Positions 359 through 42,964 are shown, numbered from the stretch's first letter. The stretch is 64,000 bases of DNA from an uncultured Ruminococcus sp. (GCA_902792515.1 CADAZX010000012.1:6165-70164), one strand, 5' to 3'. Translations and numbers: made by a program. Notes: a model not told the origin generated them from the sequence alone.

Positions 359-434
359 GGTGGCTGTGGTAGGACACGAACCCACGACCTTCCGGGTATG
401 AACCGGACGCTCTAACCAGCTAAGCTACACAGCC
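359..434 (-). tRNA. tRNA-Met (anticodon CAT; initiator/elongator/Ile-lysidine not distinguished)
   Basis: Reverse complement reads GGCTGTGTAGCTTAGCTGGTTAGAGCGTCCGGTTCATACCCGGAAGGTCGTGGGTTCGTGTCCTACCACAGCCACCA. Anticodon stem TCCGG/CCGGA with loop TTCATAC; T-arm GGTTCGTGTCC; CCA end. Confidence 0.8.
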
Positions 435-5927: not shown

Positions 5928-6419
5928 TCAGTCCGGAATCCTGATGTCAAGAACCTTGTACTCGCGAACGCCGGCAGGAACCTGAACGCTCACAACGTCG
6001 CCGATTTTTTTCCCGATAAGCGCTGAGCCTACAGGCGAATTGTTGGAGATCTTGCCCTCAAGCGGATTCGCCTCGGATGAGCCGACTACCTGATAGTCGA
6101 CGACCTTGCCGTTCCAGAGGCACTCGACCTTCACAAAGTTTCCTATCCGGACTTCGTCGTTTGTGAGCTGTCCCTCGTCATAAAAAATAATGTCGTCACG
6201 GCTGAGTTTGGCCGTGAGGCGGGCGATCTCCGCCTCGTTGTCGCGCTGTTCGTTAAGCGCTTCGTCGTATTCGGCGTTTTCCGAAAGGTCGCCGCGGCTT
6301 CTCGCCTCTTCAATTCTGCGTACGATCTCCTCTTTTTTCTCGCCTTTCAAATAGTTGAGGTAAGCCTGCTCTTCCGCATATCTTTTCGTGGTATAATAAA
6401 TTGGTCCGTCACTTGCCAT
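5928..6419 (-). CDS. greA: transcription elongation factor GreA
   Basis: 163 aa with an N-terminal coiled coil (RGDLSENAEYDEA) and a C-terminal FKBP-like domain (SPVGSALIGKKIGD). The greA-lysS order is conserved in Firmicutes. Confidence 0.9.
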   Translation of the reverse strand: MASDGPIYYTTKRYAEEQAYLNYLKGEKKEEIVRRIEEARSRGDLSENAEYDEALNEQRDNEAEIARLTAKLSRDDIIFYDEGQLTNDEVRIGNFVKVECLWNGKVVDYQVVGSSEANPLEGKISNNSPVGSALIGKKIGDVVSVQVPAGVREYKVLDIRIPD

Positions 6420-6449: not shown

Positions 6450-7958
6450 TTATTTCAGTTTGGCGTAGCCGTTATCCTTCAGAATAACGTCGTGCGCGCC
6501 GCCCTCGACGATGCTTGTCGAGCTGACCATCGTCAGCTTCGCGTTTTTGTGGAATTCCTCTATCGTGAGAACTCCGCAGTTGCACATTGTCGAGCGGATT
6601 TTTCCTAAAGTTAGGGCAATATTGTCGCTGAGTTTGCCCGCGTAGGGAACGTAGGAGTCAACGCCCTCCTCAAACGAGAGCTTTGACGCGCCGCCCATGT
6701 CGTAGCGCTGCCAGTTCCTTGCCCTGTTCGAGCCCTCGCCCCAGTACTCTTTGTAATACGTGCCGTTGATGTTGACCTTCGCCGACGGGCTCTCGTCGAA
6801 CCTCGCGAAATACCTGCCGAGCATTATGAAATCGGCGCCCATCGCCAGCGCGAGAGTCATGTGGTAGTCGAAAACGATTCCGCCGTCAGCGCAGAGCGGT
6901 ACGTAAACGCCCGTCTCCTCAAAGTATTTGTCGCGCTCCGCCGCAACGTCGATAACAGCCGAAGCCTGTCCGCGGCCGATACCCTTCTGCTCTCTCGTGA
7001 TGCAGATCGAACCGCCTCCGATACCGATCTTCACGAAGTCCGCGCCCGCGTCCGCAAGGAACCTGAACGACTCACCGTCGACAACGTTTCCGGCGCCAAC
7101 CTTCACGCTGTCACCGTATTTCGACCTGATCCACGCGATCGTCTCCTTCTGCCACTCGGAGTAACCCTCCGAAGAGTCGATGCACAGCACGTCCGCGCCC
7201 GCCTCAATAAGGGCCGGCACTCTCTTTTCGTAGTCGCGGCTGTTGATGCCCGCGCCGACCATGTACTGCTTGTGCTCGTCCAGAAGCTCGTCCGGGTTGT
7301 CCTTGTGCATATCGTAGTCCTTGCGGAAAACGAAATACTTCAGGTGGTCGTTCTCGTCGATGATCGGCAGCGAGTTGATCTTCTTCTCCCAGATAATGTC
7401 GTTCGCCTCTTTCAGCGACACGCCCTCTCTCGCGTAAACCAGCTTCGAAAACGGCGTCATAAACTCGGAAACCTTTTCGTCGCCGGTCATTCTGCTCGGC
7501 CTGTAGTCGCGGCTCGTAACGATGCCCAGAAGCTTTCCGCAGCAGGAACCGTCGTCGGTTATCGCTATCGTCGAAAATCCGTTTTCCTCTTTGAGCTTGA
7601 TCACGTCACTCAGCGTCGAATCCGGCCTCAGGTTTGACCTGCTGACAACGAATCCCGACTTGTAGCGCTTGACCTTGGAAACCATTTCCGCCTCGGACTC
7701 GATGCTCTGCGACCCGTAAATGAACGAAAGTCCGCCGCACTTCGCAAGCGCCACCGCCATGTTGTCGTCGGAAACGGCCTGCATTATCGCAGAAACCATC
7801 GGAATATTGATTGAAAGCGCCGGCTTCTCGCCCCTCCTGAATTTCACGATAGGCGTCTTCAGCGACACGTTCGACGGAACGTGCTGCTTGGAAGTATACC
7901 CCGGCAGGAGCAGGAACTCGTTAAATGTATGCGAGGGTTCCGGATAAATAAATGCCAT
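6450..7958 (-). CDS. guaB: IMP dehydrogenase (IMPDH/GMPR family with CBS pair)
   Basis: 502 aa with an inserted CBS region and the catalytic loop [13 protein letters not shown]-terminal flap [20 protein letters not shown] 8 nt upstream. Confidence 0.8.
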
Positions 7959-8097
7959 GTTTTAAATCCTCCGTTTATCAGTTAACCCGCTTGCGGCCCT
8001 TTTTCCCGGTCCGCCGCGCATGAAAAGTTCGCTTCAGATATAATAAAAAAAGCATCGGCGCGTGCTTTTGGCCACGCTACCCACACTTCATATTGCG

Positions 8098-8126
8098 ATT
8101 ATACTACGATTTTTTGCCGATTTCAA
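8098..8126 (-). promoter_or_regulatory. putative sigma-70 promoter of guaB
   Basis: Minus strand reads TTGAAA (8126..8121), 17-nt spacer, TATAAT (8103..8098), about 140 nt upstream of the guaB start. Confidence 0.4.
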
Positions 8127-8141
8127 GCGATTTCTTTCAAA

Positions 8142-8220
8142 GCCGCACTTTATGTTGCGTCTCTCACTTGACTGGGCAAAGCCCAGAATCGTTCGAACCG
8201 CAACATAAAGCTGCGGCGGC
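8142..8220. repeat. X-type palindromic element, copy X1 (arms tttatgttgcg / cgcaacataaa)
   Basis: Left arm gccgcactttatgttgcg, core ctcacttgac-tgggcaaagccca-gaatcgttcgaac, right arm cgcaacataaagctgcggcggc. Arms pair over 6+11 bp with a 1/2-nt bulge. Confidence 0.7.
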
Positions 8221-8280
8221 TCTTTCACAAGGTTGACATTGCTCGCGGAGTCGCCGCAGGCACCTTATTATTCCGTAAAA

Positions 8281-8348
8281 GCCTGTGTGTTTCGCACGAA
8301 GGCGACTCGTAGCCTTAGCTACGTCGGAGACTGAGTGGAAACACACAG
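8281..8348. repeat. H2-type element copy 1 (12-bp outer stem, conserved internal loops, inner hairpin)
   Basis: cctgtgtgtttc | GCACGAAGGCGAC | tcgtagc-ctt-agctacg | TCGGAGACTGAGTG | gaaacacacagg. Confidence 0.7.
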
Positions 8349-8407
8349 GGTTTATCGTTCGTGACGCCGATGCAAAGCTGCGGCGGCTCGAATTAAGGAA
8401 GCATTAA

Positions 8408-8483
8408 TGCACTTTATGTTGCGCCTCTCACTTGACTGGGCAAAGCCCAGAATCGTTCGAACCGCAACATAAAGCTGCGGCGG
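8408..8483. repeat. X-type palindromic element, copy X2 (atgttg type)
   Basis: Near-identical to X1: gcactttatgttgcg .. ctcacttgac tgggcaaagccca gaatcgttcgaac cgcaacataaagctgcggcggc. Confidence 0.7.
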
Positions 8484-8504
8484 CTCTAGATAAGGATGTG
8501 TTGA

Positions 8505-8558
8505 TGCACTTTGCATCGCGCCCCTCACTTGACGACGCACTTGATATTGCACCGCAGG
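8505..8558. repeat. partial X-type units (left arms of gcatcg and gatattg types, no adjacent partners)
   Basis: gcactttgcatcgcg-ccctcacttgac-gacgcacttgatattgca-ccgcaggc. The complementary gcatcg-type right arm lies at 8365..8386, on the other side of X2. Confidence 0.6.
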
Positions 8559-8578
8559 CTCCTTATTACTCCGTTAAA

Positions 8579-8632
8579 TCCTGTGTGTTTCGCAAGAAGG
8601 CGACTCGTAGCCTTAGCTACGTCGGAGACTGT
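8579..8632. repeat. H2-type element copy 2 (3' stem truncated)
   Basis: cctgtgtgtttcgcaagaaggcgactcgtagccttagctacgtcggagactgtg; the closing gaaacacacagg is missing. Confidence 0.55.
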
Positions 8633-8700
8633 GTAAAGAGCTGAAAATCGGCTTCTTGAAAACGCCTAGTTTCGAGCTATTTTTGAGAGTGCTTGTCCGA

Positions 8701-8778
8701 AGCCGCACTTTGCATCGCGCCCCTCACTTGACTGGGCAAAGCCCAGAATCGTTCGTGACGCCGATGCAAAGCTGCGGC
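8701..8778. repeat. X-type palindromic element, copy X3 (arms tttgcatcg / cgatgcaaa)
   Basis: gccgcactttgcatcgcg-cccctcacttgac-tgggcaaagccca-gaatcgttcgtgac-gccgatgcaaagctgcggcg. Confidence 0.7.
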
Positions 8779-8813
8779 GTCCTACACAAGGTTGCTAACG
8801 CAAGTTAGCCGAG

Positions 8814-8881
8814 TCGCGTATGTCTCGCGCGAAGGCGACTTTTAGCGTCAGCTAAACTGGAGACTGAGCGGAGACATACGC
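8814..8881. repeat. H2-type element copy 3 (different stems, same loops)
   Basis: cgcgtatgtctc | GCGCGAAGGCGAC | ttttagc-gtc-agctaaa | CTGGAGACTGAGCG | gagacatacgcg. Confidence 0.7.
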
Positions 8882-8993
8882 GGCTCTACTGCGAGAGGCA
8901 AGCCCTCTCAAAGCAATTCGCCAGCAATTGTCGAAGACACCTTATTCTCTTTTAGCTCCGGCGAATTGCGTAAAGAGCCGAAAATCGGCGTTT

Positions 8994-10322
8994 TTAATAC
9001 ATCAGGTTCACGTAGCTCGCATGATCCCCCATCGGGTCGATCGACCTGCCGCTCACGACCACGGTCGTGACCGTGTACTTCCCGGCCGCGAAATCCGTCG
9101 CGAACTTCGTGTACGTCGCGAGCTGCGACGGCGTGTTGATGCTGTGATACACAAAGCCCGACACAGTCGTCATGATCTCGTTGATCCTTCCGACGTTTTC
9201 GATCGTGATGACTTTCTTGGAGAAGTCCCTGATGAAGCGCAGCTGGTTGGCCTTTCTGTAGGGGTCGCCGGTCGAGCTGATTCTGCCGTTTTCGTTGTAG
9301 CGGTTTCTGGTGCGCAGGAACGTAACCGTCTCGGCGCCGTTTAAATGGTGGTAGCCCTTTGTGTACTTCAGCTCCGTTTTTCCGGTCGCCGAGTTCATGA
9401 CCCACCTGTCCTCGGAAAAATACACGTCCGCGCCGCCGAAAAGGTCGACAAACTTGGCCATGCCGTCCGGGTCGACGAAAATGTAGTCGTCAATGTGCAT
9501 GTTGGCGTCAGGCATCATCGCGCCGATGATGTGGCAGAGAAAATCGATTCCGGAGTTGCCGAACTTGCCGTCCTTGTACTTGATGAACTTGCCGATCGGA
9601 TAGCAGGCGTTCAGCTTGTATATACCCTTGCTCTTGTTGAGGCCGGTTCTCACAAGGTAGTCCTGCACCGCGCCGGTATACGGCACGTATGCGTCTCTCG
9701 CCAGCGAATAGCAGTCGACCGTTTTGGTGCGCTCGCAGATGCTGACGACTATCATCGTGTCGGTGAGGTCTGATTTGTTGTCGTAGCCTAAAAGTAGGAT
9801 ATTTTTGGCATCGGGCTGAAGTTTGACGTTGCTGCCGGCCGTTTTCGACACGCCCTCAACTATCGGGTCGGGAACGTAAGGAACCGTAGGTCCCGGGGCA
9901 CCTGTCGGCGGAGCCACGTCGGCCGGTTTAGGCGTCGGTGAAGGCGTCGGAGTCGGTGTCGGAGTAGCGTCGGGGTCTTCGGTTTCCGGAGTGGAAGAAG
10001 GATCCTCAGTAGAGGCTTCGGTTGGCGGAGGCGTTTCGGCCGGCTGCTCCGTTACCGTTGCCGGGTCCGGAGTCGGCGTAACCTCCTCGAGGTTTTCAAG
10101 GTCTGAGATGTCGATGACCTTGTCGCCCGGGTTTACCACAACGGTCTCGCCACCATGGTCGTTGTGCGGCTCGTTTTTCAGCGAGTTCCTCATAAACTTC
10201 ACGAGCGGAAGGAGCGTCGATACGTACACGACAACAAAGACAACAATAAAAATGTTGACGAAAATGCGGAGAGCCCTGCTGCCCGTCCCGTTATTCTTTT
10301 TCTTTTTAAAGTCTTTCTTCAT
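8994..10322 (-). CDS. LytR-CpsA-Psr (LCP) family cell-envelope phosphotransferase
   Basis: 442 aa: N-terminal TM helix, Pro/Thr-rich linker, then LCP domain motifs (NILLLGYDNKSDLTDTMIVVS, ..R.AYV..). Confidence 0.8.
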   Translation of the reverse strand: MKKDFKKKKNNGTGSRALRIFVNIFIVVFVVVYVSTLLPLVKFMRNSLKNEPHNDHGGETVVVNPGDKVIDISDLENLEEVTPTPDPATVTEQPAETPPPTEASTEDPSSTPETEDPDATPTPTPTPSPTPKPADVAPPTGAPGPTVPYVPDPIVEGVSKTAGSNVKLQPDAKNILLLGYDNKSDLTDTMIVVSICERTKTVDCYSLARDAYVPYTGAVQDYLVRTGLNKSKGIYKLNACYPIGKFIKYKDGKFGNSGIDFLCHIIGAMMPDANMHIDDYIFVDPDGMAKFVDLFGGADVYFSEDRWVMNSATGKTELKYTKGYHHLNGAETVTFLRTRNRYNENGRISSTGDPYRKANQLRFIRDFSKKVITIENVGRINEIMTTVSGFVYHSINTPSQLATYTKFATDFAAGKYTVTTVVVSGRSIDPMGDHASYVNLMY

Positions 10323-10499: not shown

Positions 10500-11582
10500 T
10501 TACTCCGCGTCCGGAACGTACCCCGCCGCCTTGTAGTCGGTTTCGTTCATAAAAACGTACGAGACGCCGCCCTGGAAGTAGTTGTCAGTGATCCGTTCCT
10601 TGTCGTACCACGTGACGTCGATGTAAAGCGGTCCCTCGTCAGAGTAGACGCGGTTCCAGGCGTGGCGCTCGTCCGTTCCCGGCGCGAGTCCCGCGATAAA
10701 GTCGCAGCGGATGCCCGCCTTCCCGCAGAGCAGCTGAAACGCCTCCGCATACCCCCTGCAAACGGTCGTCCCGTTCACGAAAACGTTGTACGCGAGGTAC
10801 GGATCCATGACCGACGCCTGCGAGTCCTCGTAAACGCACGCCGCCGAAATCACCAGCGCGAAGTACCAGCACTTGTAATAGTTGCTCATTCCCGAAGGCA
10901 TTTTCGCGATAACCCTGTCGACAGTCTTGTTGAAAACGTCGACCGCGTTTTTGACAGCCGCCCTGTCCTCGGTCGCGTGCGGCAGCCACTCGTTGGGCAT
11001 GTAGTATTTGAGCTTGTAGATCTCCCCGAAAAGCCCCTCCGTATCAACGTCGGAATAAAGGTACAGGTCCTTCCTGCCCGCGTGAATCGCGTCCGTAGCG
11101 TCCACGACGACGGCGAAGAAGTTCGAGATTTCCGGGTAGTCCTTTTCGTTGATCGAAAAGTCGCCGAACGACTCGGCCGCTTCAACAATTTTGTCGTAAA
11201 TCTCACGTGACATCGCGTTTTTGATCGAATCGCGCGGGTTTTTAGCGGGTTCCGGACCGTCGCTTAAGACGTTGAGCTCGTCCGCGTCGACCGTATTGAG
11301 GAGCATGACCGCCTTTTTGATCGCGGGGTCGATGTGGCGCGCGGCTTTTTCTTCGTTCGCGTCGGCGAAAACCTCATTCTCATCGAAAATGACGGTAAAG
11401 CGGTCCGGCTCCGGCGTCGGTTCGGGCGTCGGAGCCTCAGTTTGAGCAGGTGCCGGCGTCGAATTATGGACTATGGTTATGATGCCGCACGAAGCGCACA
11501 CGCACAGAAACACCGCCGCGGCGACAACCGCCGCAACCGCCCTCAAAAACCTTCTGATTCTTTTAGCGTTCCCGTGTTCCAT
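10500..11582 (-). CDS. transglutaminase-like (Cys-His-Asp) lipoprotein
   Basis: Start at MEHGNAKR (ATG 11582) with a GGAAGGGG RBS. Signal/lipobox ..CVCASCG. Catalytic triad context CRGYAEAF, HAWN, DVTW. Confidence 0.7.
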   Translation of the reverse strand: MEHGNAKRIRRFLRAVAAVVAAAVFLCVCASCGIITIVHNSTPAPAQTEAPTPEPTPEPDRFTVIFDENEVFADANEEKAARHIDPAIKKAVMLLNTVDADELNVLSDGPEPAKNPRDSIKNAMSREIYDKIVEAAESFGDFSINEKDYPEISNFFAVVVDATDAIHAGRKDLYLYSDVDTEGLFGEIYKLKYYMPNEWLPHATEDRAAVKNAVDVFNKTVDRVIAKMPSGMSNYYKCWYFALVISAACVYEDSQASVMDPYLAYNVFVNGTTVCRGYAEAFQLLCGKAGIRCDFIAGLAPGTDERHAWNRVYSDEGPLYIDVTWYDKERITDNYFQGGVSYVFMNETDYKAAGYVPDAE

Positions 11583-11639
11583 TTCTGCCCCTTCCAATGA
11601 TTTCCGCATCTGAAACCGCGCGTGCGGCTCAAATTTTAC

Positions 11640-12185
11640 TCAAATTTTACCCAGCACGCGCCTCACCTCGAAGCTGCGCAGCGCCATCTCCTTCATGACC
11701 TGGTCGTCATGCTTAATGTATATCTCGTAAACGACGCCCTCGTCGACGGACCTGGCGTTAAAGCCGTAAGCCTCTTCATCGTCGTCGCCGAAGCAGTACA
11801 AAACCTTCGGGGCGTCTTCCTTCCTGACACCGTCGTTCTTTTTCGCCAGAACGTCGGCGGTTTTTACCTTCCTGAAATTCTCAAGGTCCTTTATGAGGAA
11901 ACTCATGACCTTCTTGCGGCGCGTCTGGTTCCTGATCTCGGAAATCGTAAACTCGCCCATAACTATCGAAAACTCGTACTCCAGATTGTTGTACTTCATA
12001 ATAAGCACCATCCCGTAAAACGCGATTGCGAAAACGAGAATGATCAGCAGAAAGCCGATCAGATGGTAAAAAATGTATATAACCGTCGCGACGGCAAGCG
12101 CCGCGATAGCGATGAGAATGCAGTAAATTACCGCGGTCTTGTTTTTTCTTGCCTTTACAAAGGTTTCGATTACTTCTTCTCTCAT
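11640..12185 (-). CDS. hypothetical membrane protein (two TM helices plus cytoplasmic domain)
   Basis: 181 aa with RBS GGAAG and two hydrophobic helices near the N-terminus. Confidence 0.55.
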   Translation of the reverse strand: MREEVIETFVKARKNKTAVIYCILIAIAALAVATVIYIFYHLIGFLLIILVFAIAFYGMVLIMKYNNLEYEFSIVMGEFTISEIRNQTRRKKVMSFLIKDLENFRKVKTADVLAKKNDGVRKEDAPKVLYCFGDDDEEAYGFNARSVDEGVVYEIYIKHDDQVMKEMALRSFEVRRVLGKI

Positions 12186-12312
12186 ATTATAACTTCCGAT
12201 AAAGGAAAGCGCACCTCCGAAGGGTTGTCGTATCGCCTCCGGGGGTGCGAAAAACCGCCACCATCATCTGGGGCATTCAATTATATTGGTTGCGCTTCGC
12301 ATTTCACCTGTC

Positions 12313-12449
12313 GCCGCACTTTGCATCGCGCCCCTCACTTGACGCCGCACTTTATGTTGCGCCCCTCACTTGACGACGCACTTGATATTGCACCGCTCAC
12401 TTGACCGCTTCGCGGAATCGTTCACGTCGCAATATCAAGCTGCGGCGGC
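12313..12449. repeat. 3x tandem 31-nt units (X-type left arm + CTCACTTGAC) plus one complementary right arm
   Basis: gccgcactttgcatcgcg-cccctcacttgac / gccgcactttatgttgcg-cccctcacttgac / gacgcacttgatattgca-ccgctcacttgac, then cgcttcgcggaatcgttcacgt, then cgcaatatcaagctgcggcggc, which pairs with unit 3. Confidence 0.7.
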
Positions 12450-12506
12450 TCTTCCACAAGGTAGATATTGCTCGCGGAATCGCCGCAGGCCCCGTGACGA
12501 TTCAAA

Positions 12507-12576
12507 CCAGGTGAGTCTCGCGCGAGGGCGACTTTTAGCGGCAGCTAAACCGGAGACCAAGCGGAGACTCACCTGG
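12507..12576. repeat. H2-type element copy 4 (overlaps the stop codon of the substrate-binding protein gene)
   Basis: ccaggtgagtctc | GCGCGAGGGCGAC | ttttagc-ggc-agctaaa | CCGGAGACCAAGCG | gagactcacctgg. Confidence 0.7.
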
Positions 12577-14020
12577 TAATCCAGCCGGCCTGGGCTTTTT
12601 CCTGCAGCGTCTGCAGGCTTTCCAACATCGTTCTCTCGCCGGACAGATAGCCGTCGATCGCGTAGGAGATGTCTATCTCGTTCGCGGACATTACCGGCAT
12701 GAAGCAGCCGAGGGAGCCCGCGAAGTCGGCGGATTCGGCGAAGTTCGAGAACACGGACGAGTTTTTGCCCGGCTTCGGGTATTCACGCCAGAACTTCTGG
12801 GTGTTGGCCGCCCTGTTAGCGGGAACGGCCTGGCCGTCGAGCGCGTAGCTCTTGGCGGCGTCGGTAACGGTCGCGTAGAGAGCGAGGTAAGCGCAGGCGC
12901 GGTAGAAGTCGTCGTTGTAGACGTCGCTCTTGCCGTGGTTCACGACAGCGAAGCCGTACACGTTGGCAGCGATCGCCTGGTAGTAAATACCGTTTTCCGC
13001 GTAGTTCTCGTCGTTCCAGCGCGGGAAGTGGATGTAGTCCCATTCCCACTTTGCGCCTTCGGCCTCAGGGTCTTCGGCGGCGAGGAGCGTCTCGGACCAT
13101 GTCGCGATGTCCTCGTGGTCAGCGATGATGAACGCGTATTTGGAGATGTCCTCGGGAGCGATATCCTTGGAGTCGATGCAGTCGACAAGTCCGCGCTCGG
13201 GGTTCACGATCTCGGCGAGGTCCTCAAGGCCGCTGACGACGTCGGGGTGCGTCAGGTTGAGTTCCTTGACCGTTTCCGAGTTGCCCACGTAGTCGTACAC
13301 GTCCTGGCCGTAGCTTCTCGCAAACGCGCCCCAGATCGCGTAGTCCTTGTAGTTCATCGCGATGGGAGTTTCGACGCCCTTCCCTTTCAGCGCCTCGGCG
13401 ATCTCAACCAGGTCGTCCCACGTCCAGTCGTCGTGCGGGAACGTGTAGCCCGCGGAGGAGATCAGCGAGTAGTTGAGCAGTACGAACTTGTGGTTGTACT
13501 CCATCGCCACCATGTACATGTCGCCGTTGTAGAAGCAAGCGTTGTACGCGGCGGGAAGAAGGTCGGCCGACGGATTGATTTTATTGTACGTGTCGAAGTT
13601 GAGCACTTCGCCGATGTACGGCCCGAGGTCGACAAGTTTGCCCTGCTGCGCGTAAAGTTCCATGCGCGGGGCGTCGAGGAGGATGACGTCGCCGGCGTTT
13701 TCGAGGTCGTCGCCGCTCATGAGGTCGTCGAGAACCTCAAAGTAAAGCGAAGTGGAGACCTTGTCGAGGTCGATGTCGATCTCAACGCCCGGGTAGTCGG
13801 AGTAGAAGACTGACTTGAACTTTTCGAGGTTCTGCGAGTTCTCGGAGTAGAGGTAGCCGGAGAGCTTGATCTCGGAAACGAGGTTCTCCGGAGTCGGTCT
13901 CGGAGTCGGCTTTATCTTATCGTCGTCGTCATCTTTTTTGGGCGTGCAGCCGGCCATTATCGCGAGCGCGAGAATGACGCAGATCGCAGCCGCAAGGAAA
14001 GCTTTTATTTTTCTGTTCAT
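12569..14020 (-). CDS. ABC transporter substrate-binding lipoprotein (extracellular solute-binding family 1, sugar type)
   Basis: Start at MNRKIKAFLAAAICVILALAIMAGC (ATG 14020..14018) with a GGAGGAGG RBS; the ORF-track N-terminal extension to 14299 is not supported. Lipobox, poly-Asp linker, SBP fold. Confidence 0.8.
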   Translation of the reverse strand: MNRKIKAFLAAAICVILALAIMAGCTPKKDDDDDKIKPTPRPTPENLVSEIKLSGYLYSENSQNLEKFKSVFYSDYPGVEIDIDLDKVSTSLYFEVLDDLMSGDDLENAGDVILLDAPRMELYAQQGKLVDLGPYIGEVLNFDTYNKINPSADLLPAAYNACFYNGDMYMVAMEYNHKFVLLNYSLISSAGYTFPHDDWTWDDLVEIAEALKGKGVETPIAMNYKDYAIWGAFARSYGQDVYDYVGNSETVKELNLTHPDVVSGLEDLAEIVNPERGLVDCIDSKDIAPEDISKYAFIIADHEDIATWSETLLAAEDPEAEGAKWEWDYIHFPRWNDENYAENGIYYQAIAANVYGFAVVNHGKSDVYNDDFYRACAYLALYATVTDAAKSYALDGQAVPANRAANTQKFWREYPKPGKNSSVFSNFAESADFAGSLGCFMPVMSANEIDISYAIDGYLSGERTMLESLQTLQEKAQAGWITR

Positions 14021-14034
14021 AAGTGCCTCCTCCT

Positions 14035-15048
14035 TTATTCGATAACGCCTATACGTTCGATACCGGCGGCAAGCTGTTTCTGACCGAGAATGTAGACGAT
14101 CATAACGGGGAGCATAACCATAAGGCAGCCCGCGAAGAGCATCGGCTCGGAGAGCGACTTTTCGAGCTCGGACATTGCGCCCTGGCTGGTCGCGTACTTG
14201 CTGTAGTACATCTGAATGTTCTGGAGTCTCGGCTGGAGCGTCTGGTGGCCGTCGATGTACATGTACGTTGGAGCCTCGTAGTTGTCGTTCCAGTGCCATA
14301 CGAACGAGAATATGAATACGATCGCGATAGCGGACTTTACGAGCGGGAGCATGATCTGTCCGAAGACCCTGATCGGGCCCGCACCGTCGATTCTGGCCGC
14401 GTCGTCCATAACGTCAGGAATTCTCTGGAAGAAGTACATGTAGATCAGCACGAAAAGCGCGCCGCGGAGGCCGAGTCCGAAAACGCACGGAAGCACGACC
14501 GGTCCCCAGGTGTTTACGAGACTGAGCGTCGCCCACAGACCGTAGGACGCGAGAATCATAACCTGCGGGGGGATGAGCAGTACAAGTACGACGAGGAAGA
14601 AAATAACGTTTCTGACCTTGAACTTGTAGCGGCCCAGCGAGTACCCTATCAGAGCGCACGCGGTCGTCTGGAACAGAGCCGAGAGGAGCGACGTTCCCAT
14701 CGAGTTGAAGAACGACTTGACGTAGTCGAGCGCCTCGAAAGCCTTCACGAAGTTGTCCCAGTTGACGGTGGTCGGGATGTACTGGACCGTCGGGTCCATG
14801 TAGTCCTGCGACGTCATGAGAGACGTGGAGAAAATGTAGATGAAAGGCAGAATGAAAAGGTACGCCATCTCGATGAGTACGAAGTACACAAAGATTCTGG
14901 AGATGATGAACGTGATCTTCTTCTTTGCCTTGTAGCCGAGATTCTCATATTTTTTGATGAATCCCTTGATGCCGCCGAGCTTCTTTTCGGTCTGCACGGC
15001 CGCGGCATCCGCTTGGGCAGCGGCGGTGTTAACAGCTTCCGGTGTCAC
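14035..15048 (-). CDS. carbohydrate ABC transporter permease (MalG-like)
   Basis: Six TM helices. Start chosen at the GTG (15048..15046), which sits 8 nt after GGAGG and overlaps the upstream stop as GTGA. The ORF track gives 15057, where the RBS abuts the start. Confidence 0.75.
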   Translation of the reverse strand: MTPEAVNTAAAQADAAAVQTEKKLGGIKGFIKKYENLGYKAKKKITFIISRIFVYFVLIEMAYLFILPFIYIFSTSLMTSQDYMDPTVQYIPTTVNWDNFVKAFEALDYVKSFFNSMGTSLLSALFQTTACALIGYSLGRYKFKVRNVIFFLVVLVLLIPPQVMILASYGLWATLSLVNTWGPVVLPCVFGLGLRGALFVLIYMYFFQRIPDVMDDAARIDGAGPIRVFGQIMLPLVKSAIAIVFIFSFVWHWNDNYEAPTYMYIDGHQTLQPRLQNIQMYYSKYATSQGAMSELEKSLSEPMLFAGCLMVMLPVMIVYILGQKQLAAGIERIGVIE

Positions 15049-15953
15049 TTCAGCCACCTCCTCGTAAGCAGGATGAAGATCATGATGACCGTGAGTGTTG
15101 CGAGCATGTAGAGCCAGCTGAGAGCCGACGCCTGTCCGTATTTCGTACCCTCCTGGGTCATACTGTTCATGATCGCCATAACGGGGTTGTCGGACGACAC
15201 GAACGAGTCAACGAGAGCGTATACGCAGTTCAGAATGACGAACGGCGAGATGTACGGCAGGGTAACGTGCCAGAACGTCTCCCACGCGGAGGCGCCGTCG
15301 ATTTCGACGACCTCGTAAAGCGTAGCGGGAACGCTCTGGAGAGCCGCGAGGAAGATCAGTATCTCAACGCTCGAGGCCCACATTATCGCGCCTATGTTGC
15401 TCATGATCGTCCCGAAGAACGAGTTGATCTGCTGAACACCCGTTGTGATCGAACTGAAAAGGCTCATGTTTCCGACGCCGTCCCTGAAAAGGTACGTCAT
15501 GATCGTTCCGGCGAGAATGACCGGGATGAAGAATATGACGCGGAAGACCGTTCTGCCCGGGAAGTCCTGCTTGAGCAGCACCGCCACGAAGAGCGAGAAA
15601 GCGACGATTACCGGCACCTTAATGAGCGAGTTTCCGAACGATTTGAAAACCGTTTCGCCGACGTTCGGGTCCTGGATAACCTTTACGTAGTTGTTGAAGC
15701 CGACGTACGTACTCGTGCCGTGGAATCCGTAAAGGTCGGTCAGAACCGTCTGGAAGAAACTGATTCTGACGGACAGTACGAGCGGAACCACGATGAATCC
15801 GAGGAATCCGATCAGCCACGGTACGGCAAATAGGAAACCTTCAAGCGATCTCTTCTTCTCAAACGACAGCAGAGTGTACTTTTGAGAATGAGCAAGCTTT
15901 TTCTTGTATTTTACCTGTTTTTTCAAAACAACCGGCCCCCTTTCGTTATCCAA
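15045..15953 (-). CDS. carbohydrate ABC transporter permease (MalF-like)
   Basis: 302 aa, six TM helices, EAA-type loop region. Confidence 0.8.
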   Translation of the reverse strand: MDNERGPVVLKKQVKYKKKLAHSQKYTLLSFEKKRSLEGFLFAVPWLIGFLGFIVVPLVLSVRISFFQTVLTDLYGFHGTSTYVGFNNYVKVIQDPNVGETVFKSFGNSLIKVPVIVAFSLFVAVLLKQDFPGRTVFRVIFFIPVILAGTIMTYLFRDGVGNMSLFSSITTGVQQINSFFGTIMSNIGAIMWASSVEILIFLAALQSVPATLYEVVEIDGASAWETFWHVTLPYISPFVILNCVYALVDSFVSSDNPVMAIMNSMTQEGTKYGQASALSWLYMLATLTVIMIFILLTRRWLK

Positions 15954-18693
15954 CCTTGACGGCCTCGGAAGAACCGTTATTGACTACCGCCACACCGAGC
16001 GCGGGAACGAGTCCCTCGGGAGCAGCGTAGTTTTCCTTGCTGTAGTTGACGTATATCTTTACGCCGTTGCTGTAGGTCGTGCAGTAGATGTCACCGTTTC
16101 TCGGGTCGTCCACGCACTTGTGGTCTACTATCGTGGCGTTCGCGACCGGCGCGAGGACCTTGTCGGCGAGAACGTAACCCTTCATTATGTCCGCGCTGAG
16201 GTCGTCGTACTGAGCCTTGAACAGCGAGTTGTAGTCGGTGTAGCGGAGCTCTTCCGTGGGTTCCTTGGTGACTTCGTACGTGAAGAACGCGCCGTACTCG
16301 ATCGATCTGAGCAGCGACTCGGTGTAGTTCGAGCTTCTGTTGATCGCGGTCGAATAGTAGTCAACCAGTCCGTGGTAAACGATCTGAACGAACGGAACGG
16401 ACTCGTCGATGATGAACAGCCTGGACGTCTCGGTCGGGATGTCGAGAATGTTGTCCGCGACTGAGGCGGCGTACTCGTAGCCGTAGTAGACCGAAACGTT
16501 GGCGAATTCCTTCTCGAACTCAACGATCCACTTTCTGTAGTACTCGATCGCCTGCTGGCGGAGAAGCGCGTTCTCCTTGTTGTAGTCCGTGAACAGGAGG
16601 TCGCCGAGCTGCTGGAGGTCGACGCTTGTGAAGCCGAGCTTCGAGATGTTCTTGACGTCCTTCTTCAGCATATGGGAGTCGTAGTAGAGCGGCCCCATAT
16701 AGTAGTTGTTGCTGGACCTGTAGAAAACGCCCGCGTTGCTGACCTGCTTGTAGTTTACGTAGAACGTGCCCGGGTTCTTTACGGTCGCCTGGCGGAGGCT
16801 GGCTCCCTTCGGCTTTCCGTAGAGGATCAGCATGTTCACGTCGGCGCTGACGTCCTTTTTGTTTTCGGCCGCATACGAAGTGAGGTCTTTAAGTCCGCTC
16901 TTGCCGCCCACGCTCGCACCGATGTTGTACTTGCGCATTATGTTGCCGTAGTAGCCGCCCTGCTGCCATCCGAGGAGCGAGTAGCGCATTCTCGGAGCCG
17001 CCTCGGCGGTCGACGCGACAATGTTCTTGGCCTGCGCGAACGTTGTCATGACCTTGTACTGCGTGAAGAGTCTGACCGAAGCCTGGTTGACGTCCGCGAA
17101 GAATATCTTGAGGTTGATGAGGTCGGGATCCTGACGCTTGTTTTCGTAGGAGTTGACCTTCGCGTCCTTGAGATAGTCGATCGTTTTGAAGTCGTTGTCC
17201 CACTTGTTAATCAGGAACTCTCGCGTGTTGTTCGCGACGTCGACGTACGTGTACTTCTTGTCCGAGTCGAACTCGTAGGAGTATCGCATCGTGAAGTCGC
17301 CGATTCCGGAGGGAACCTCGAGGAACGTGTAGGAGGCGCCGTTCTGGCTCATTTTCGCCTGGTAGAACTCTCTCCACTTGAACACGAACGTGACGTAGTA
17401 GAATTTCAGGTTCTTCATACCCGGCTGGCCGATGAGGACGGAAGCGTTCGCCTCGCTCTCGGTCGCGTAGCACGTGAGCATTTTGCTGCCCTTGACAACG
17501 CCGTACACCGGCATCGAGATCTTCTCGTTCGTCATGTTCGGGTAGTTGAACACGTCGAAAATGTCGTCGTAGCCGTAAATTCTCTTCTGGTACTCGTCGA
17601 ACTGCGAAATTCTCGGAACGTCGAAGTAAGTGAGTCCGCCGGAACCGTCGGGAGTTACGAAGTAGCCCTCGTCGCCCTGTCTCGCGGCGCTCATGAACGG
17701 CAGGCACGCGATGGACGCGACTCTCGGCATCTCGTCGGAATCTCTCGTGTAGTCCTTCTCTTCCTTGTCCTCCTTGACGTCCTTCTTGGGAACGTTGACG
17801 ATGAGGTCGCCGTTTTCGTCGAGCCAGAACTCAACCGCGAAGCTGAACTCGTAATTCACCTTGTAGGTGTCGGCCATGTTGTCGGTCTTGGTGACTTCGA
17901 TCGGAACCGTGTAGCGGACCTTGAAGCCGTCCGCGATCTTGTTGTACGCGAACCTGACCTTGTCTACCTGGTTGATACCGAAGTCCTTGCCGCCGTCGAG
18001 GTTGGAGGCTGTGTAGCCGAGCCTGACGAGAGAGGAAACGATATCGTGGTTGACCTTGTACTTCGGGTATTCGCTGTCGGCTGTTGCCGGGTCTGTCTCT
18101 TCGGGCTTCGGCGCCGGCCAGCTTCTGATCTCCTCTTTCTCACCCTTGGAGTTGGTGATCTCGAGGATGAGCAGCGAGTCTGAAGGCGAAAACTTGAGAA
18201 CGGTCTTGCCGCCGAGCTTGTTGGCCTTTTCGACGATGACTGTCATTCCCGCGTCGTTCGGAATCGTCTCTCCCGCCGCCTTGGGCTCGTTCTTGACAAT
18301 GTACTTGTCCATCCACTTGATATAGCCGACGTTACCGCCGAAAATCACCTTGTAGATGATGAAAATAGCCAGGAGCGCGACGACGATCGCCACAACGGTA
18401 ATGATGATCTTCTTTCTCTTTTTCTTCTTGCGCTGCTCTTCGAGGAACCTCTCGGCCTCCTCTTTGTCGATGTAAACGCCTTTGCGCGCCTCGTCGTCGT
18501 CCATTGAGGTCTTGAAAGCTGCCGTTTTTTTCGTCACGGTCTCCTGCGCCGCGTTTTCCGCGGTTTCGGCCGCGTTTTCGACGGTTCCGGCTGCATTTTC
18601 GACGGTCTCCGCGGTGTTCTCAACCGCGTTGTCAGCTGCCTCTACGTTTTGCAAGGCGTCATCTATATCGGTTTTTTTATTCTTTTTAAACAA
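15946..18693 (-). CDS. membrane-anchored DUF5696-like protein (putative glycoside-hydrolase-like; family name recalled from memory)
   Basis: 915 aa: cytoplasmic N-terminus with (T)VENAAE repeats, one TM helix (IIITVVAIVVALLAIFIIY) and a large extracellular domain. The C-terminal half is homologous to the CDS at 53586..55460. Confidence 0.65.
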   Translation of the reverse strand: MFKKNKKTDIDDALQNVEAADNAVENTAETVENAAGTVENAAETAENAAQETVTKKTAAFKTSMDDDEARKGVYIDKEEAERFLEEQRKKKKRKKIIITVVAIVVALLAIFIIYKVIFGGNVGYIKWMDKYIVKNEPKAAGETIPNDAGMTVIVEKANKLGGKTVLKFSPSDSLLILEITNSKGEKEEIRSWPAPKPEETDPATADSEYPKYKVNHDIVSSLVRLGYTASNLDGGKDFGINQVDKVRFAYNKIADGFKVRYTVPIEVTKTDNMADTYKVNYEFSFAVEFWLDENGDLIVNVPKKDVKEDKEEKDYTRDSDEMPRVASIACLPFMSAARQGDEGYFVTPDGSGGLTYFDVPRISQFDEYQKRIYGYDDIFDVFNYPNMTNEKISMPVYGVVKGSKMLTCYATESEANASVLIGQPGMKNLKFYYVTFVFKWREFYQAKMSQNGASYTFLEVPSGIGDFTMRYSYEFDSDKKYTYVDVANNTREFLINKWDNDFKTIDYLKDAKVNSYENKRQDPDLINLKIFFADVNQASVRLFTQYKVMTTFAQAKNIVASTAEAAPRMRYSLLGWQQGGYYGNIMRKYNIGASVGGKSGLKDLTSYAAENKKDVSADVNMLILYGKPKGASLRQATVKNPGTFYVNYKQVSNAGVFYRSSNNYYMGPLYYDSHMLKKDVKNISKLGFTSVDLQQLGDLLFTDYNKENALLRQQAIEYYRKWIVEFEKEFANVSVYYGYEYAASVADNILDIPTETSRLFIIDESVPFVQIVYHGLVDYYSTAINRSSNYTESLLRSIEYGAFFTYEVTKEPTEELRYTDYNSLFKAQYDDLSADIMKGYVLADKVLAPVANATIVDHKCVDDPRNGDIYCTTYSNGVKIYVNYSKENYAAPEGLVPALGVAVVNNGSSEAVKVG

Positions 18694-37326: not shown

Positions 37327-37386
37327 ACCGCTCTTTTGTTTTACCGCTGCAGTCGAAGATTATAGAGCCGCGGCCTTTTGCGCGTT

Positions 37387-37950
37387 TTACGACCTTTTAT
37401 AAAGTATCGACGCGGCGACCTTGTCCGCTGCCTGTTTCCCCGCGAGCGCTTCCGCGATCGCCAGCGCGAAGTCGAGCGCGGTCCCCACGCCTCTCGACGT
37501 GATCACGTTCCCGTCCCTGACAACCTTCTCCTCCGAATACCCGCAGGCAGCTTCGTCTACGCAGCCGGGATAAGACGTGGCGCGGCGCCCTTTAAGAAGG
37601 CCCGCCTTTTCGAGAACGCACGGCGCCGCGCATATCGCGCAGACAATTTTTCCCTTTGCGTAAAACGCTTTCGCGGCGTCTGTCGCGCGCGTGTCGTCGC
37701 GGAGGGTGTGTGCGTTAGGCAGTCCGCCCGGGAACGCCAGTGCGTCGAACGCATCCGCGCAGTCTTCGTTTACCATTCGTCCGAAAACGGCGTCGGCGGC
37801 TACGTCTATGCCGTGGGAGCCGTGAAGAACGTTTCTGCCGGTCATCGAGCAGACAGTAACCGCGACCCCCGCCCTTCTCAGAATATCCACTGTAGTCAGC
37901 GCTTCGACCTCCTCAAAGCCGTCGTGAACCATCATCAATACTTTTTTCAT
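37387..37950 (-). CDS. DJ-1/PfpI-family protein
   Basis: Start at MKKVLMM (ATG 37950). Nucleophile-elbow cysteine in ..KIVCAICAAP... Confidence 0.8.
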   Translation of the reverse strand: MKKVLMMVHDGFEEVEALTTVDILRRAGVAVTVCSMTGRNVLHGSHGIDVAADAVFGRMVNEDCADAFDALAFPGGLPNAHTLRDDTRATDAAKAFYAKGKIVCAICAAPCVLEKAGLLKGRRATSYPGCVDEAACGYSEEKVVRDGNVITSRGVGTALDFALAIAEALAGKQAADKVAASILYKRS

Positions 37951-38051
37951 CTCCAAAGCACGTTCCTTTCTCTTTTCACGGCCGCTGGAGCGCGGCGGTG
38001 TTATGATCATATACGAAAATTATACCCGTTTCCGCCCCGGGCTTCAACCGT

Positions 38052-38152
38052 GTTTCCCGCCGTTTCCAATTAATTTTCCAATTGATTTTCTGTCATTATC
38101 CGGCATTTCCCGCTTTTTCCGGCTTTTCCCGCGTTTTTCCGGCATTTTCCAT
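38052..38152. repeat. low-complexity TTTTCCGGC / TTTCCCGC tract
   Basis: ttccaattaattttccaattgattttc ... ccggcatttcccgctttttccggcttttcccgcgtttttccggcattttcc. Confidence 0.5.
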
Positions 38153-38285: not shown

Positions 38286-39953
38286 TTACGCGGCGGTGTG
38301 GCTGACGCTCTCGAACTTGGCTTTGTCAATGATCTTGACGGCCTTGTTGTTCTTCTTCGTGAGCTCGTACTTGGCGCCGGCGTCGGCGACCTCTTTGGAG
38401 GTGTCGTCATCGGACTTGAGCGACTTGAGGTTGTTCAGAACGACCGTTCTCACGCTGAGCGTGGCAGAAGAGTTCTCGTCCTCCGCGGGCTCGTCCTCGG
38501 TGCTGGTGTTGATGTCGAGGATGCCGGTGCACTTCGTGATGTAGTAGCGGTTGTCGTCCTGGAAGAGCTTCAGTTTGGTCTCCTTGAACTTGCCGCTGTC
38601 GTCGGTAACGCTCTCGAGGTTGTAGTCGTTTCCGTAGGGCTCGAGGTCGGGCTTCTCGACCGGGTTCTCGTTCTCTTTTTCGCCCTCTTCCTTGTCGCCT
38701 TCCTCGTCGCCTTCCTCAGCCTTGTCGTCGGTCTTCTCGGTGAGCGTGCTCTTCACGGCCTTGCGCGTGTCGTCGGTCCACTGGAGAGAGTTCGCGAATT
38801 TTCCGAGCAGGTCGGTCGACGAAGGAGTTCCGCTGAACGTGTTGGCGCCCTTCGCGGAAGCGTAGAGAACGCCCTCTTTGGCGGCGATGTCTTCAAGCGT
38901 GGCGTCGGTGTAGTCGGGAACCGCCTTGATGTCGTTGCCGTCGGCGTCCTTCTCGCCTGTTGCAACTTCCGCGATGCCCTTGCCGGTGTACTTGCCGTCC
39001 TTAAGGAGCGCGTCGAAAATCGCCTTGACCTTCGTCTCGATTTCATCGCACTTCTGGTTCCATTCCTCGAGCTTCTTGTTGTACTCTTCGAGGTCCTTCA
39101 CGTACTTGTCGTACGCGTCCTTCTTGGTCTTGTACTCGACGTACTCTTCGGAGGTCTCGTCCTTGTTCTCGGGCTCGGTGGGCTCAGTGACCTTGGTGGG
39201 CTCGGTAGGCTTGGAGCCGGGCTTCGCGAAAACGAGCGAAGTCAGGTTGATCCTGCGGTAGTCGTCGAGGTGCTTGTTGTACTCGTCGAGGACGGCCTGT
39301 TCGCCGTTGCTCTTGACGTTTCCGTCATCGTCTTTGAAGTACAGATCTTCGACCTTGTATGTCTCTTCGAGCTTGTCTCTGTACTTTTCGATAGCCGCGA
39401 GCTTGTTGGCGTACTTGCAGTACTCGTCGAGCTCGTCATAAGTGACGTTGACGCCCGTTACAAGCTTCACGATCTGATCCACGGAATACGAGCTTCCGTA
39501 CATCTGATAATAGATGTTGATGTAGTAATTGAGGTTATTTTTGATGTTGGTCTTTTCCTGCTTGGAAAGATTGCATCCGTTCTTCACGGCGAGACGGTAT
39601 TTTCCGTTGAACTCGGCAACCTCTTTAAGAGCGTGCTCCTGAGCCTCCGCCTGCTTGTCCGCCGTCCAGTACGTGCTCGCGGAGAAGTTTTCGTCAGCCT
39701 CGTCCGCCTCGGACTCCATTTCCGCGACAGCGTCGTCGAGGAAAATACGGTACTCGAGAACAGGAACGCGCTTGCCGTCGACGTAACCGACATAAGATTT
39801 GCTGTCCGCGTCAATAAGAACGGCAGCGACAATCGCGGCGGTGATGACCGCGACCGCGATAACGATAATTAAAATAATTTTGGTATCGAATTTGGAGACT
39901 TTCTTGGGAGTCGGTCTCTTTTTATCATAAATACCCTTAGCCAAAATGCTCAA
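38286..39953 (-). CDS. hypothetical membrane-anchored, Lys/Glu/Asp-rich extracytoplasmic protein (SurA-N/PrsA-like region possible)
   Basis: 555 aa: N-terminal TM helix, then a low-complexity, highly charged sequence. No catalytic motif recognised. Confidence 0.55.
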   Translation of the reverse strand: MSILAKGIYDKKRPTPKKVSKFDTKIILIIVIAVAVITAAIVAAVLIDADSKSYVGYVDGKRVPVLEYRIFLDDAVAEMESEADEADENFSASTYWTADKQAEAQEHALKEVAEFNGKYRLAVKNGCNLSKQEKTNIKNNLNYYINIYYQMYGSSYSVDQIVKLVTGVNVTYDELDEYCKYANKLAAIEKYRDKLEETYKVEDLYFKDDDGNVKSNGEQAVLDEYNKHLDDYRRINLTSLVFAKPGSKPTEPTKVTEPTEPENKDETSEEYVEYKTKKDAYDKYVKDLEEYNKKLEEWNQKCDEIETKVKAIFDALLKDGKYTGKGIAEVATGEKDADGNDIKAVPDYTDATLEDIAAKEGVLYASAKGANTFSGTPSSTDLLGKFANSLQWTDDTRKAVKSTLTEKTDDKAEEGDEEGDKEEGEKENENPVEKPDLEPYGNDYNLESVTDDSGKFKETKLKLFQDDNRYYITKCTGILDINTSTEDEPAEDENSSATLSVRTVVLNNLKSLKSDDDTSKEVADAGAKYELTKKNNKAVKIIDKAKFESVSHTAA

Positions 39954-40188
39954 CCGCCTTTTCTAAAATGTAAATCGTTCTCTCTTGCGGAAGTTCCGGA
40001 AAACTCCGGCGGAAACTGCCCTGTCTCACCGCTCCGCAGAATAAAGCAAATAATATTATATACTTTCCGTACAGTTTTGGCAACCCTTTTTTTGTAAATG
40101 ACGCCGCCGTGTGACGCCCCCGGTGACGCCGCCTTGGAAGCGAAAAGCCGGCCCGCGGCCGAAGAAGCCCGGAAACCGCCGATTTTAC

Positions 40189-40218
40189 TTGAAAAAACAC
40201 CCTCGAAAATGGTACACT
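40189..40218 (+). promoter_or_regulatory. putative promoter of the GH78-like gene
   Basis: TTGAAA (40189-40194), 18-nt spacer, TGg-TACACT (40213-40218). Confidence 0.35.
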
Positions 40219-40253
40219 AAGCGCAATGAATGCTCACGGGAGGGACCACTTCT

Positions 40254-42719: not shown

Positions 42720-42964
42720 CACCTGGATTTCGAAGTAAAAAATTAAATCAAAAGCCCTGAGGCTCAGGCGTTTCCGCGATCTCGCGAATGATGCTGCTTC
42801 AGGGCTTTATTGTGACGTCTTTAGTGTATCCGGAAACGGAACGCTCTTTTTAAATCAGGCCGCTGCCACGCTGCTCCTTCCGCTTGTTATGCGGGGATAT
42901 GAGTTTGGAATCCTTTCCAAGGATAAGGATGCGGTTTATCTGCAGGTTTCCCAAACACCCGCTG

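Follow-up and report, generated by a model that had tools for sequence, protein, structure and literature searches.

The repeats closest in kind to those described here are the repetitive extragenic palindromes (REP) and their BIME and REPIN forms, which are short palindromes dispersed between genes in many copies, in both orientations and in mosaics with other motifs. In REP and REPIN systems the presumed substrate is a single-stranded DNA hairpin, insertion leaves no target-site duplication, solo halves are found as remnants, and the partner enzyme, RAYT, is a Y1 transposase resembling those of IS200/IS605 insertion sequences (IS). REP/RAYT systems are not known from the Clostridia lineage studied here. 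Compensatory changes are common in REPIN hairpins (PMC3116915), and further precedents are provided by bcr1 of the Bacillus cereus group, a mobile repeat with a cruciform-like multi-hairpin fold kept by compensatory changes, and by BOX of Streptococcus pneumoniae, a modular element composed of boxA, a variable number of boxB modules and boxC (PMC3184786). Here we analyze a stretch of 64,000 nt from an uncultured Ruminococcus sp. (GCA_902792515.1, CADAZX010000012.1:6165-70164; hereafter the window, with coordinates counted from its first letter) in which a palindrome of ~80 nt, designated X, recurs as a module of larger, composite intergenic elements. These elements constitute a new lineage-specific family of a familiar kind of repeat (REP/BIME, REPIN, BOX, bcr1) and not a new type of system, and we consider it probable that they are lineage-specific, non-autonomous, selfish intergenic repeats of uncultured rumen and gut Oscillospiraceae, a group encompassing the organism of the window and Mageeibacillus sp. 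UBA1212.

Each X opens with GCCGCAC and continues with an 11-nt left arm, CCYCTCACTTGAC, a mini-hairpin, GAATCGTTC(N4-5), the right arm and GCTGCGGCG, ending in GCTGCGGC; its 12-nt conserved internal loops are asymmetric, with CTCACTTGAC on one side and GAATCGTTC on the other. A covariance model built from 38 X copies and applied to the entire window with its filters disabled detected exactly four complete X, all on the + strand, with scores of 77-110 bits and E-values of 6e-17 to 2e-25. The cmsearch bounds of these copies are 8139-8220, 8403-8484, 8699-8781 and 12372-12449, the first, second and fourth of which are extended in Table 1 to take in the trailing GGCTC, and further partial matches fall at 12310-12366, 8500-8556 and 8309-8387. 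Folded as single-stranded DNA, the first copy reaches -25.4 kcal/mol (z -6.7). Exact matches to CTCACTTGAC number seven in the window, every one on the + strand, against ~0.1 expected by simple arithmetic in 128 kb of random sequence. All X copies of the window, complete or partial, sit within two intergenic gaps: a 1,035-nt non-coding gap (7959-8993, cluster 1) between guaB and a LytR_cpsA_psr gene, and a 383-nt gap (12186-12568, cluster 2) between a DUF6106 gene and a solute-binding-protein gene. An earlier note on this DNA had reported three complete copies with a shared core between 8142 and 8778, and the sequence there is as it described: the observation is confirmed, the core is present and the coordinates are right, and the interpretation is partly supported. 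Its list was short of the half elements, of which there are one right and four left, and of the H2 and S hairpins presented below. A role for the TTGAC of the core as the -35 element of an internal promoter was rejected, no -10 element standing at usable spacing on either strand.

The arms of X differ between copies in a compensated manner. An alignment of 38 distinct X copies, drawn from the window, the related metagenome-assembled genome (MAG) and metagenomes, places standard pairs in 96.9% of cells across 24 proposed pairs, and both sides have changed in 9 of the 24. The covariation score of this alignment (0.274, compared with 0.124 in shuffles) was reached by none of 500 shuffles, and sliding the partner columns left only 28-47% pairing. 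The arms define about four haplotypes: A, with left arm TTTATGTTG and right arm CAACATAAA; A', which is A with one further swapped pair; B, with TTTGCATCG and CGATGCAAA; and C, with TTGATATTG and CAATATCAA. Four pairs separate type A from type B, and two separate A from C; except at the four swapped pairs, A- and B-type copies can match fully, as illustrated by locus L040 and window 8699-8781. Two apex variants (TGGGCAAAGCCCA and CGCTTCGCG) are each found with several arm types.

Uncompensated copies are rare, since only 4 of the 38 aligned copies contain one or two unmatched arm positions: L019:221-299 and L037:2004-2082 present two transitions each, in one arm only, and L019:452-534 and L042 present one unmatched arm position each. 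Beyond these four, an A left arm adjoins a B right arm in a single copy (L021). The compensated arm differences put forward in the earlier note are thus borne out by nine pairs changed on both sides and by the four pairs that separate A from B, and a check for free mixing of the arms found that they do not mix freely, mismatched copies being rare in the alignment. The further contention that plain copy-paste repeats do not show such a pattern is wrong, as the haplotypes are themselves copied and REPINs and bcr1 are compensated likewise (PMC3116915; PMC3184786). With only about four arm haplotypes, each multiplied by copying, the independent compensatory events in X are therefore few.

X is a module of larger composite elements and not a stand-alone unit, and the initial treatment of X as the element has to be abandoned; the strongest covariation lies in other helices. 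Across 11 composite units, 96.2% of cells are paired and 34 of 88 pairs have changed on both sides; shuffles yield 17.5 compensated pairs, with 0 of 500 reaching 34, and slid columns at most 8. The module set comprises X, S, H2, H3, P2 and the terminal arms P1, which make up units of 80 to about 410 nt. Compensation is present in all six helices of the composite unit, and the unpaired junction sequences are invariant. The terminal arms span ~20-38 bp, with tips that vary between copies and an invariant inner part, and H3 encloses an invariant AGCAA.TGTCG.AAGACACCTTAT. The AAGGT that follows X is complementary to the ACCTT of the H3 loop; as both motifs are nearly invariant, this long-range pairing offers no covariation to test.

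The remaining modules of the window show how these parts are combined. In a strain contig (L058), X is split: a left half of type B with its core is followed by an X of type A, S, a linker, H2a, ATCGTTCG and a right half of type B, and in the predicted multibranch fold the two B halves form the closure. The solo right half at 8354-8389 of the window is a remnant of this split form. The 5' arm of S overlaps the 3' outer arm of X, so that the pairings of S and of X copy 1 are mutually exclusive. At both 8211-8222 and 12440-12451, the partner of CTGCGGCGGCTC can be either the 5' outer arm of X or the downstream GGAGTCGCCGCAG, and the minimum-free-energy fold favors S plus the inner X stem. The 3' arm of H2c holds the stop codon (12569-12571) of the solute-binding-protein ORF (open reading frame), and H2c as a whole (12506-12577) differs from its UBA1212 counterpart (L008, reverse complement ~6060-6140) at 1 of 72 nt, compared with ~9% in the flanking genes, a conservation that could reflect either purifying selection or gene conversion between copies. 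At many loci, the interior of H2 alternates between GAAGGCGAC...GGAGACTGAGCG and GAGGGCGAC...GGAGACCAAGCG, which is Watson-Crick covariation. GAAGACGAC goes with GGAGGC, a G/A to A/G swap that forms no standard pair and that may represent a non-canonical contact or subfamily linkage. A hammerhead identity for H2, considered for its CUGAG...GAA motif, was rejected: the invariant G8-A9 positions are missing and there is no Rfam match.

To delimit the family, we scanned sequence collections for the exact pattern CTCACTTGAC-N9-13-GAATCGTTC. In the genomes of 185,579 species it occurs at 12 loci (13 matches), all in the MAG of Mageeibacillus sp. UBA1212 (Oscillospiraceae), where the 13 matches lie on 10 contigs and are all intergenic. 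Metagenome contigs contributed 38 loci, ~29 of which are true family members, the remainder lacking the arms. The lineage is present in the ERZ2728xxxx, ERZ1029xxx and STEW19 samples. The pattern was not found in viral contigs, and BLAST of the composite unit 8651-9002 against plasmids and phages revealed no similarity, so a phage or plasmid origin was dropped. One locus of the UBA1212 MAG (L008) is syntenic with window 10818-18563 at ~90% identity, indicating that the window comes from a sister species of UBA1212. All copies are intergenic; their neighbors are unrelated housekeeping genes (DnaJ, Maf, DnaB_2, ECF transporter), no neighboring gene recurs, and the orientation of units relative to their neighbors is unbiased (13 anti/anti and 11 same/same). 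The earlier note recognized no known family, and comparison of the window and the canonical unit with Rfam, at gathering score and at E<=10, likewise returned no family over the repeats, with only chance-level matches of 13-22 bits there and, at gathering score, matches to just two tRNAs in the window. A full-text literature search with three conserved motifs retrieved nothing relevant (only an unrelated match to a pine double-stranded RNA).

Close relatives differ in which modules they hold and in how these are arranged. Between its DUF6106 and transglutaminase genes, L008 has a unit of ~365 nt, compared with 30 nt at that place in the window, and it lacks window 12319-12489, the junction falling in a shared TCGCCGCA. 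In L018, 132 nt with an X replace 8 nt of L056, in reverse orientation with respect to the host unit and disrupting its P2 helix. In L037 and L030 the inner hairpin of H2 holds an X in its apex, an arrangement not seen in most H2 copies, and units exist with and without X and H2 inside the P2 loop (L039, L014, L056). The position of the cargo is constant, between TTGAC and (A/T)TCGTTC, which indicates that the conserved "loops" of X mark the junction of an exchangeable apex. Overall, copies are nested, truncated and inverted, and found in both orientations.

Contigs encoding a GuaB or DUF6106 protein identical to that of the window display at least four different module arrangements, and many of them end inside repeats. 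Over 12.3 kb, an ENA contig (L001) shows 99.98% identity to the window, until the two part exactly at 12318. Since the same modules recur in independent assemblies, most of these differences in arrangement are probably real. In a further contig (L062, ena:ERZ914904 scaffold_66832, 2287-2866) with an identical DUF6106 protein, the cluster is joined to the SmpB side and not to the ABC-transporter operon; either synteny is broken at the repeats or the contig is an assembly chimera. The repeats account for the breaks in assemblies of this rumen and gut Oscillospiraceae lineage upstream of guaB and next to the DUF6106 gene, and they mark hotspots of strain-level rearrangement, including the synteny break of L062 if genuine.

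The folding potential of the composite unit is strand-dependent. Its consensus folds to -114.2 kcal/mol on the + strand and to -95.8 kcal/mol on the - strand, and outside X the + strand shows 16 G-T events against 4 A-C events, one of the 16 being a basal G-T pair of H2 retained by 10 of the 11 units. We favor a single-stranded DNA intermediate over RNA as the best account of these features, and propose that the elements would be copied and rearranged at the DNA level through such an intermediate; + strand DNA is its likeliest form, by analogy with REP/RAYT and IS200/IS605-type systems. Pairing alone would be required of the stems, their sequence being free, and the asymmetric loops CTCACTTGAC and GAATCGTTC would be the sequence-specific sites at which a trans-acting enzyme, its gene lying elsewhere in the genome, recognizes or cuts the element. 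From loops that are invariant and asymmetric and stems that co-vary freely, this enzyme is predicted to be structure-specific. Copies with unmatched arms could not propagate, and the arms would stay matched through the failure of such copies together with gene conversion between copies.

In line with the earlier comparison to REP/BIME mosaics, which is apt, the X family shares with REP and REPIN the dispersed extragenic copies and the compensation that keeps the hairpin (13 matches in UBA1212, 9 of 24 pairs), as well as the many copies in mosaics and both orientations, the solo halves, the lack of a target-site duplication and a presumed single-stranded hairpin substrate. REP and REPIN, however, are palindromes of ~20-40 nt with a GTAG-like 5' tetranucleotide, usually arranged as inverted doublets, whereas X measures ~80 nt, has no GTAG, contains conserved internal loops that are long and asymmetric as well as an apex that can be replaced, forms inverted doublets only rarely (L006 and L035 only) and belongs to far larger composite units of 350-410 nt and six helices. 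Furthermore, no RAYT was found in the 64-kb window or in the ~0.5 Mb of fetched loci. The family resembles BOX in being modular, intergenic and similar to miniature inverted-repeat transposable elements (MITEs), and the tandem 31-nt left halves at 12312-12405 recall its variable number of internal modules; BOX modules are collinear, in contrast to the nesting of hairpin within hairpin seen here, and there is no sequence similarity. BOX is thought to be mobilized by an IS, whereas no candidate IS is known for the present family. As with bcr1, these are Firmicutes-specific interspersed repeats that behave like mobile elements and vary in distribution between close strains (PMC3184786). The size of bcr1 (~155 bp), its 5-bp direct repeats at the ends and its transcription have no demonstrated counterpart here, and again no sequence similarity exists.

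Two systems that act on folded single strands were also considered. Integron attC sites are likewise imperfect palindromes conserved in structure and variable in sequence, with unpaired bases and a variable terminal structure, and they are recognized as a folded single strand. An attC identity was nonetheless rejected, as RYYYAAC/GTTRRRY boxes, cassettes or ORFs and IntI are lacking and the loci are dispersed instead of forming one array; the 264-296 nt between X copies are non-coding and hold other repeat modules only. The subterminal hairpins of IS200/IS605, their ORF-less derivatives (PATEs) and the ωRNA of TnpB are similar in being structured, non-coding and multicopy, in their strand-specific single-stranded DNA hairpins and in the lack of duplication on insertion. 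IS200/IS605 elements have two different, non-complementary ends, whereas the units described here are closed by complementary terminal arms, and a derivation from IS200/IS605 (PATE or ωRNA) was rejected for want of a conserved 4-5 nt 5' target, of a TnpA match in the fetched loci and of TnpB among the neighboring ORFs. What is unusual in the present family is the depth of nesting, the six-helix composite unit and the long invariant asymmetric loops of X.

Several observations weigh against the interpretation of the family as selfish repeats mobilized as single-stranded DNA. Pfam transposase, recombinase and reverse-transcriptase domains are absent from the 40 ORFs of the window, which bears out the earlier remark that it encodes neither RAYT nor any other transposase. 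No IS-like inverted-repeat pairs 0.6-3.5 kb apart were found at any locus except for two X in L035, no matched left and right pairs enclose more than 370 nt in the fetched loci, and tblastn with Y1 transposase queries of unverified sequence gave no match in the ~0.5 Mb fetched. Neither a target-site duplication nor a clean insertion boundary was definable at ~15 inspected units and X copies, and some strain differences may be artefacts of metagenome assembly in repeats. Within X, G-T and A-C events are balanced (4 and 6), so that the strand preference rests on the other helices, and part of it comes from a structure that was predicted with the rules for RNA folding. A functional RNA would also look like this, with six helices that co-vary around invariant junctions, and on the + strand the complete unit of the window carries both a promoter-like site, TTGAAA-16-TATTTT (8656-8683), and a terminator (8977-8989). 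Further searches around the insertions gave the following results. The sole flanking repeat, TCGCCGCA (12312/12482), belongs to a module; no common motif was seen in the 5' flanks of units; and a Pfam search of 10 neighboring ORFs found no TnpB/IscB-like ORF, those of ~400 aa having no OrfB domains.

The resemblance to a functional RNA bears on an alternative that we judge possible, if rather unlikely, in which the composite units are genes, or cis-acting parts, of a structured non-coding RNA family of ~300 nt, with X and H2 as RNA domains and a covariation that stems from selection on RNA structure. The dispersed copies would then be RNA-gene paralogs, or else a mobile element would carry the RNA (ωRNA/HEARO-like). 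The co-varying helices with their invariant single-stranded junctions, the advantage of 18 kcal/mol for the + strand, the excess of G-U over A-C outside X (16 to 4), the promoter-like site and terminator of unit 8651-9002 and the near-identity of H2c between species would all suit such an RNA. Those transcription signals, however, are missing from all three canonical units of the UBA1212 lineage that were scanned (two in UBA1212 itself, one in a metagenome contig), none of which has its own promoter or terminator, and because orientation to neighbors is random (13 versus 11), read-through would yield the folding strand only half the time. Many copies are halves, truncated or inserted in reverse into another unit with loss of its P2, and neither an Rfam match, even at E<=10, nor a recurring neighbor gene, nor a TnpB/IscB-like ORF accompanies the elements. 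The selection for a hairpin claimed earlier, at the level of RNA or cruciform DNA, stands as regards a real hairpin constraint; an RNA-level role is not favored, given occurrence in either orientation, signals that are mostly absent and many broken, nested or inverted copies.

A more doubtful proposition is that an undescribed mobile system, either hairpin-specific or RNA-associated, has the six-helix unit of ~350-410 nt, with X and H2 as domains, as its working part. This could be a structured + strand RNA traveling with, or guiding, an unrecognized nuclease or recombinase, or a new class of single-strand hairpin transposons inserting at the apex of other hairpins; in either form the loops CTCACTTGAC and GAATCGTTC would be cleavage sites and the stems free to change. 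A and B copies that are identical except for four swapped pairs, together with the tandem arrays of left arms, hint at a templated, concerted change of both arms.

Doubtful to a still greater degree is a classical MITE origin, in which a DDE transposase would bind the matched arms, acting as terminal inverted repeats, in double-stranded form and the arm haplotypes would be subfamilies derived from different parent insertion sequences. The terminal inverted arms of the composite unit (~20-38 bp) and the presence/absence differences between relatives agree with this origin, as does the inner end sequence GGCTCTTTACGC, which may resemble ISL3-type ends, although an identification of the ends as ISL3-like was not retained. 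Yet DDE ends are normally most conserved at their tips, and here the outermost terminal bases are the most variable. The X loops are asymmetric (CTCACTTGAC versus GAATCGTTC) and so fit poorly with a pair of identical sites bound as double strands, recognition of double-stranded ends would not lead one to expect a fold that differs between strands, the ~15 inspected copies show no target-site duplication, and neither an autonomous copy nor a parent IS with the same ends is found in the ~0.5 Mb fetched. Finally, an artefact, whether chance palindromes or misassembly of a simple repeat, is scarcely credible: strain contigs often end in repeats and de Bruijn assemblers can mis-join them, but covariance-model E-values run from 6e-17 to 2e-25, orthologous copies are common to both species, and the modules recur independently in the nearly identical ENA contig, a GenBank MAG and JGI and other metagenomes.

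As selfish repeats of this lineage, the family would provide a clean Gram-positive example of structure-constrained elements of this kind, and in itself it leaves general knowledge of bacterial interspersed repeats unchanged. Its modules could be used as strain-typing markers and should be masked when the lineage is screened for new RNAs. The coordinates of the modules and of two adjoining genes are collected in Table 1.

Table 1. Positions of repeat modules and of the genes bordering cluster 1 in the window.
Feature	Position	Strand	Remarks
guaB (IMP dehydrogenase)	6450-7958	-	
X copy 1	8139-8222	+	type A arms TTTATGTTGCG/CGCAACATAAA; mini-hairpin TGGGCAAAGCCCA; 102.5 bits
S hairpin	8211-8260	+	CTGCGGCGGCTC...GGAGTCGCCGCAG; G-T wobble on + strand
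H2 type a (H2a)	8278-8353	+	variable outer stem AAAGCCTGTGTGTTTC/GAAACACACAGGGTTT around conserved GAAGGCGAC-hairpin-GGAGAC
Solo right half X, type B	8354-8389	+	ATCGTTCGTGAC GCCGATGCAAA GCTGCGGCGGCTC; directly 3' of H2a
X copy 2	8403-8486	+	type A arms TTTATGTTGCG/CGCAACATAAA; degenerate 5' outer arm AATGCAC; 89.4 bits
Solo left half X, type B	8506-8533	+	
Left-half fragment X, type C	8534-8553	+	follows type-B left half
Truncated H2	8576-8634	+	5' arm and core only; fused to end module TGTGTAAAGAGCTGAAAATCGGC, reaching 8663
Complete composite unit	8651-9002	+	six helices; 350-410 nt class
P1 terminal arms	8659-8678 with 8975-8994	+	
Invariant AGCTATTTTT	8675-8684	+	
P2	8682-8695 with 8898-8912	+	encloses X, optional small hairpin and H2
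X copy 3	8699-8781	+	type B arms TTTGCATCG/CGATGCAAA; inside composite unit 8651-9002
Small hairpin	8794-8809	+	optional in units
H2 type b	8811-8886	+	in composite unit
H3	8913-8922 with 8960-8969	+	loop AGCAATTGTCGAAGACACCTTAT
Invariant GCGTAAAGAGC motif	8967-8978	+	
LytR_cpsA_psr gene	8994-10322	-	
Tandem 31-nt solo left halves X	12312-12343 (type B), 12344-12374 (type A)	+	each ends in CTCACTTGAC
X copy 4	12372-12451	+	type C arms TTGATATTGC/GCAATATCAA; different mini-hairpin CGCTTCGCG; 76.7 bits
S hairpin, second copy	12440-12489	+	
H2 type c (H2c)	12506-12577	+	orthologous in Mageeibacillus sp. UBA1212

Both repeat clusters occupy the stretch from the end of one gene to the promoter of the next, each ending directly upstream of the strong promoter-like site of the following minus-strand gene. 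These sites are TTGAAA-17-TATAAT at 8098-8126 (-) for guaB and GTGAAA-16-TATAAT at 12280-12307 (-) for the DUF6106 gene. Between the latter site and the DUF6106 start codon, a hairpin GCGCACCTCCG...CGGGGGTGCG (~12215-12255, -) with a T-rich tail on the minus strand is conserved between species, and may be a leader, an attenuator or the terminator of an upstream operon.

Elsewhere in the window, three ORFs of 231-845 aa have no Pfam match (37378-38073, 38286-39953 and 40185-42722), and the two tRNA genes lie at 282-353 and 361-434 (-), with Rfam scores of 61 and 66.6 bits. Two DUF5696 proteins are encoded in carbohydrate-uptake and glycoside-hydrolase neighborhoods, at 15946-18693 (-), with a full-length domain, and at 53586-55460 (+), matching only part of the model. 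Repeats with a 12-nt period (GGCGTCGG-like) lie at 9911-9979 in the LytR_cpsA_psr ORF and at 11405-11461 in the transglutaminase-like ORF, where they probably specify linker peptides of low complexity.

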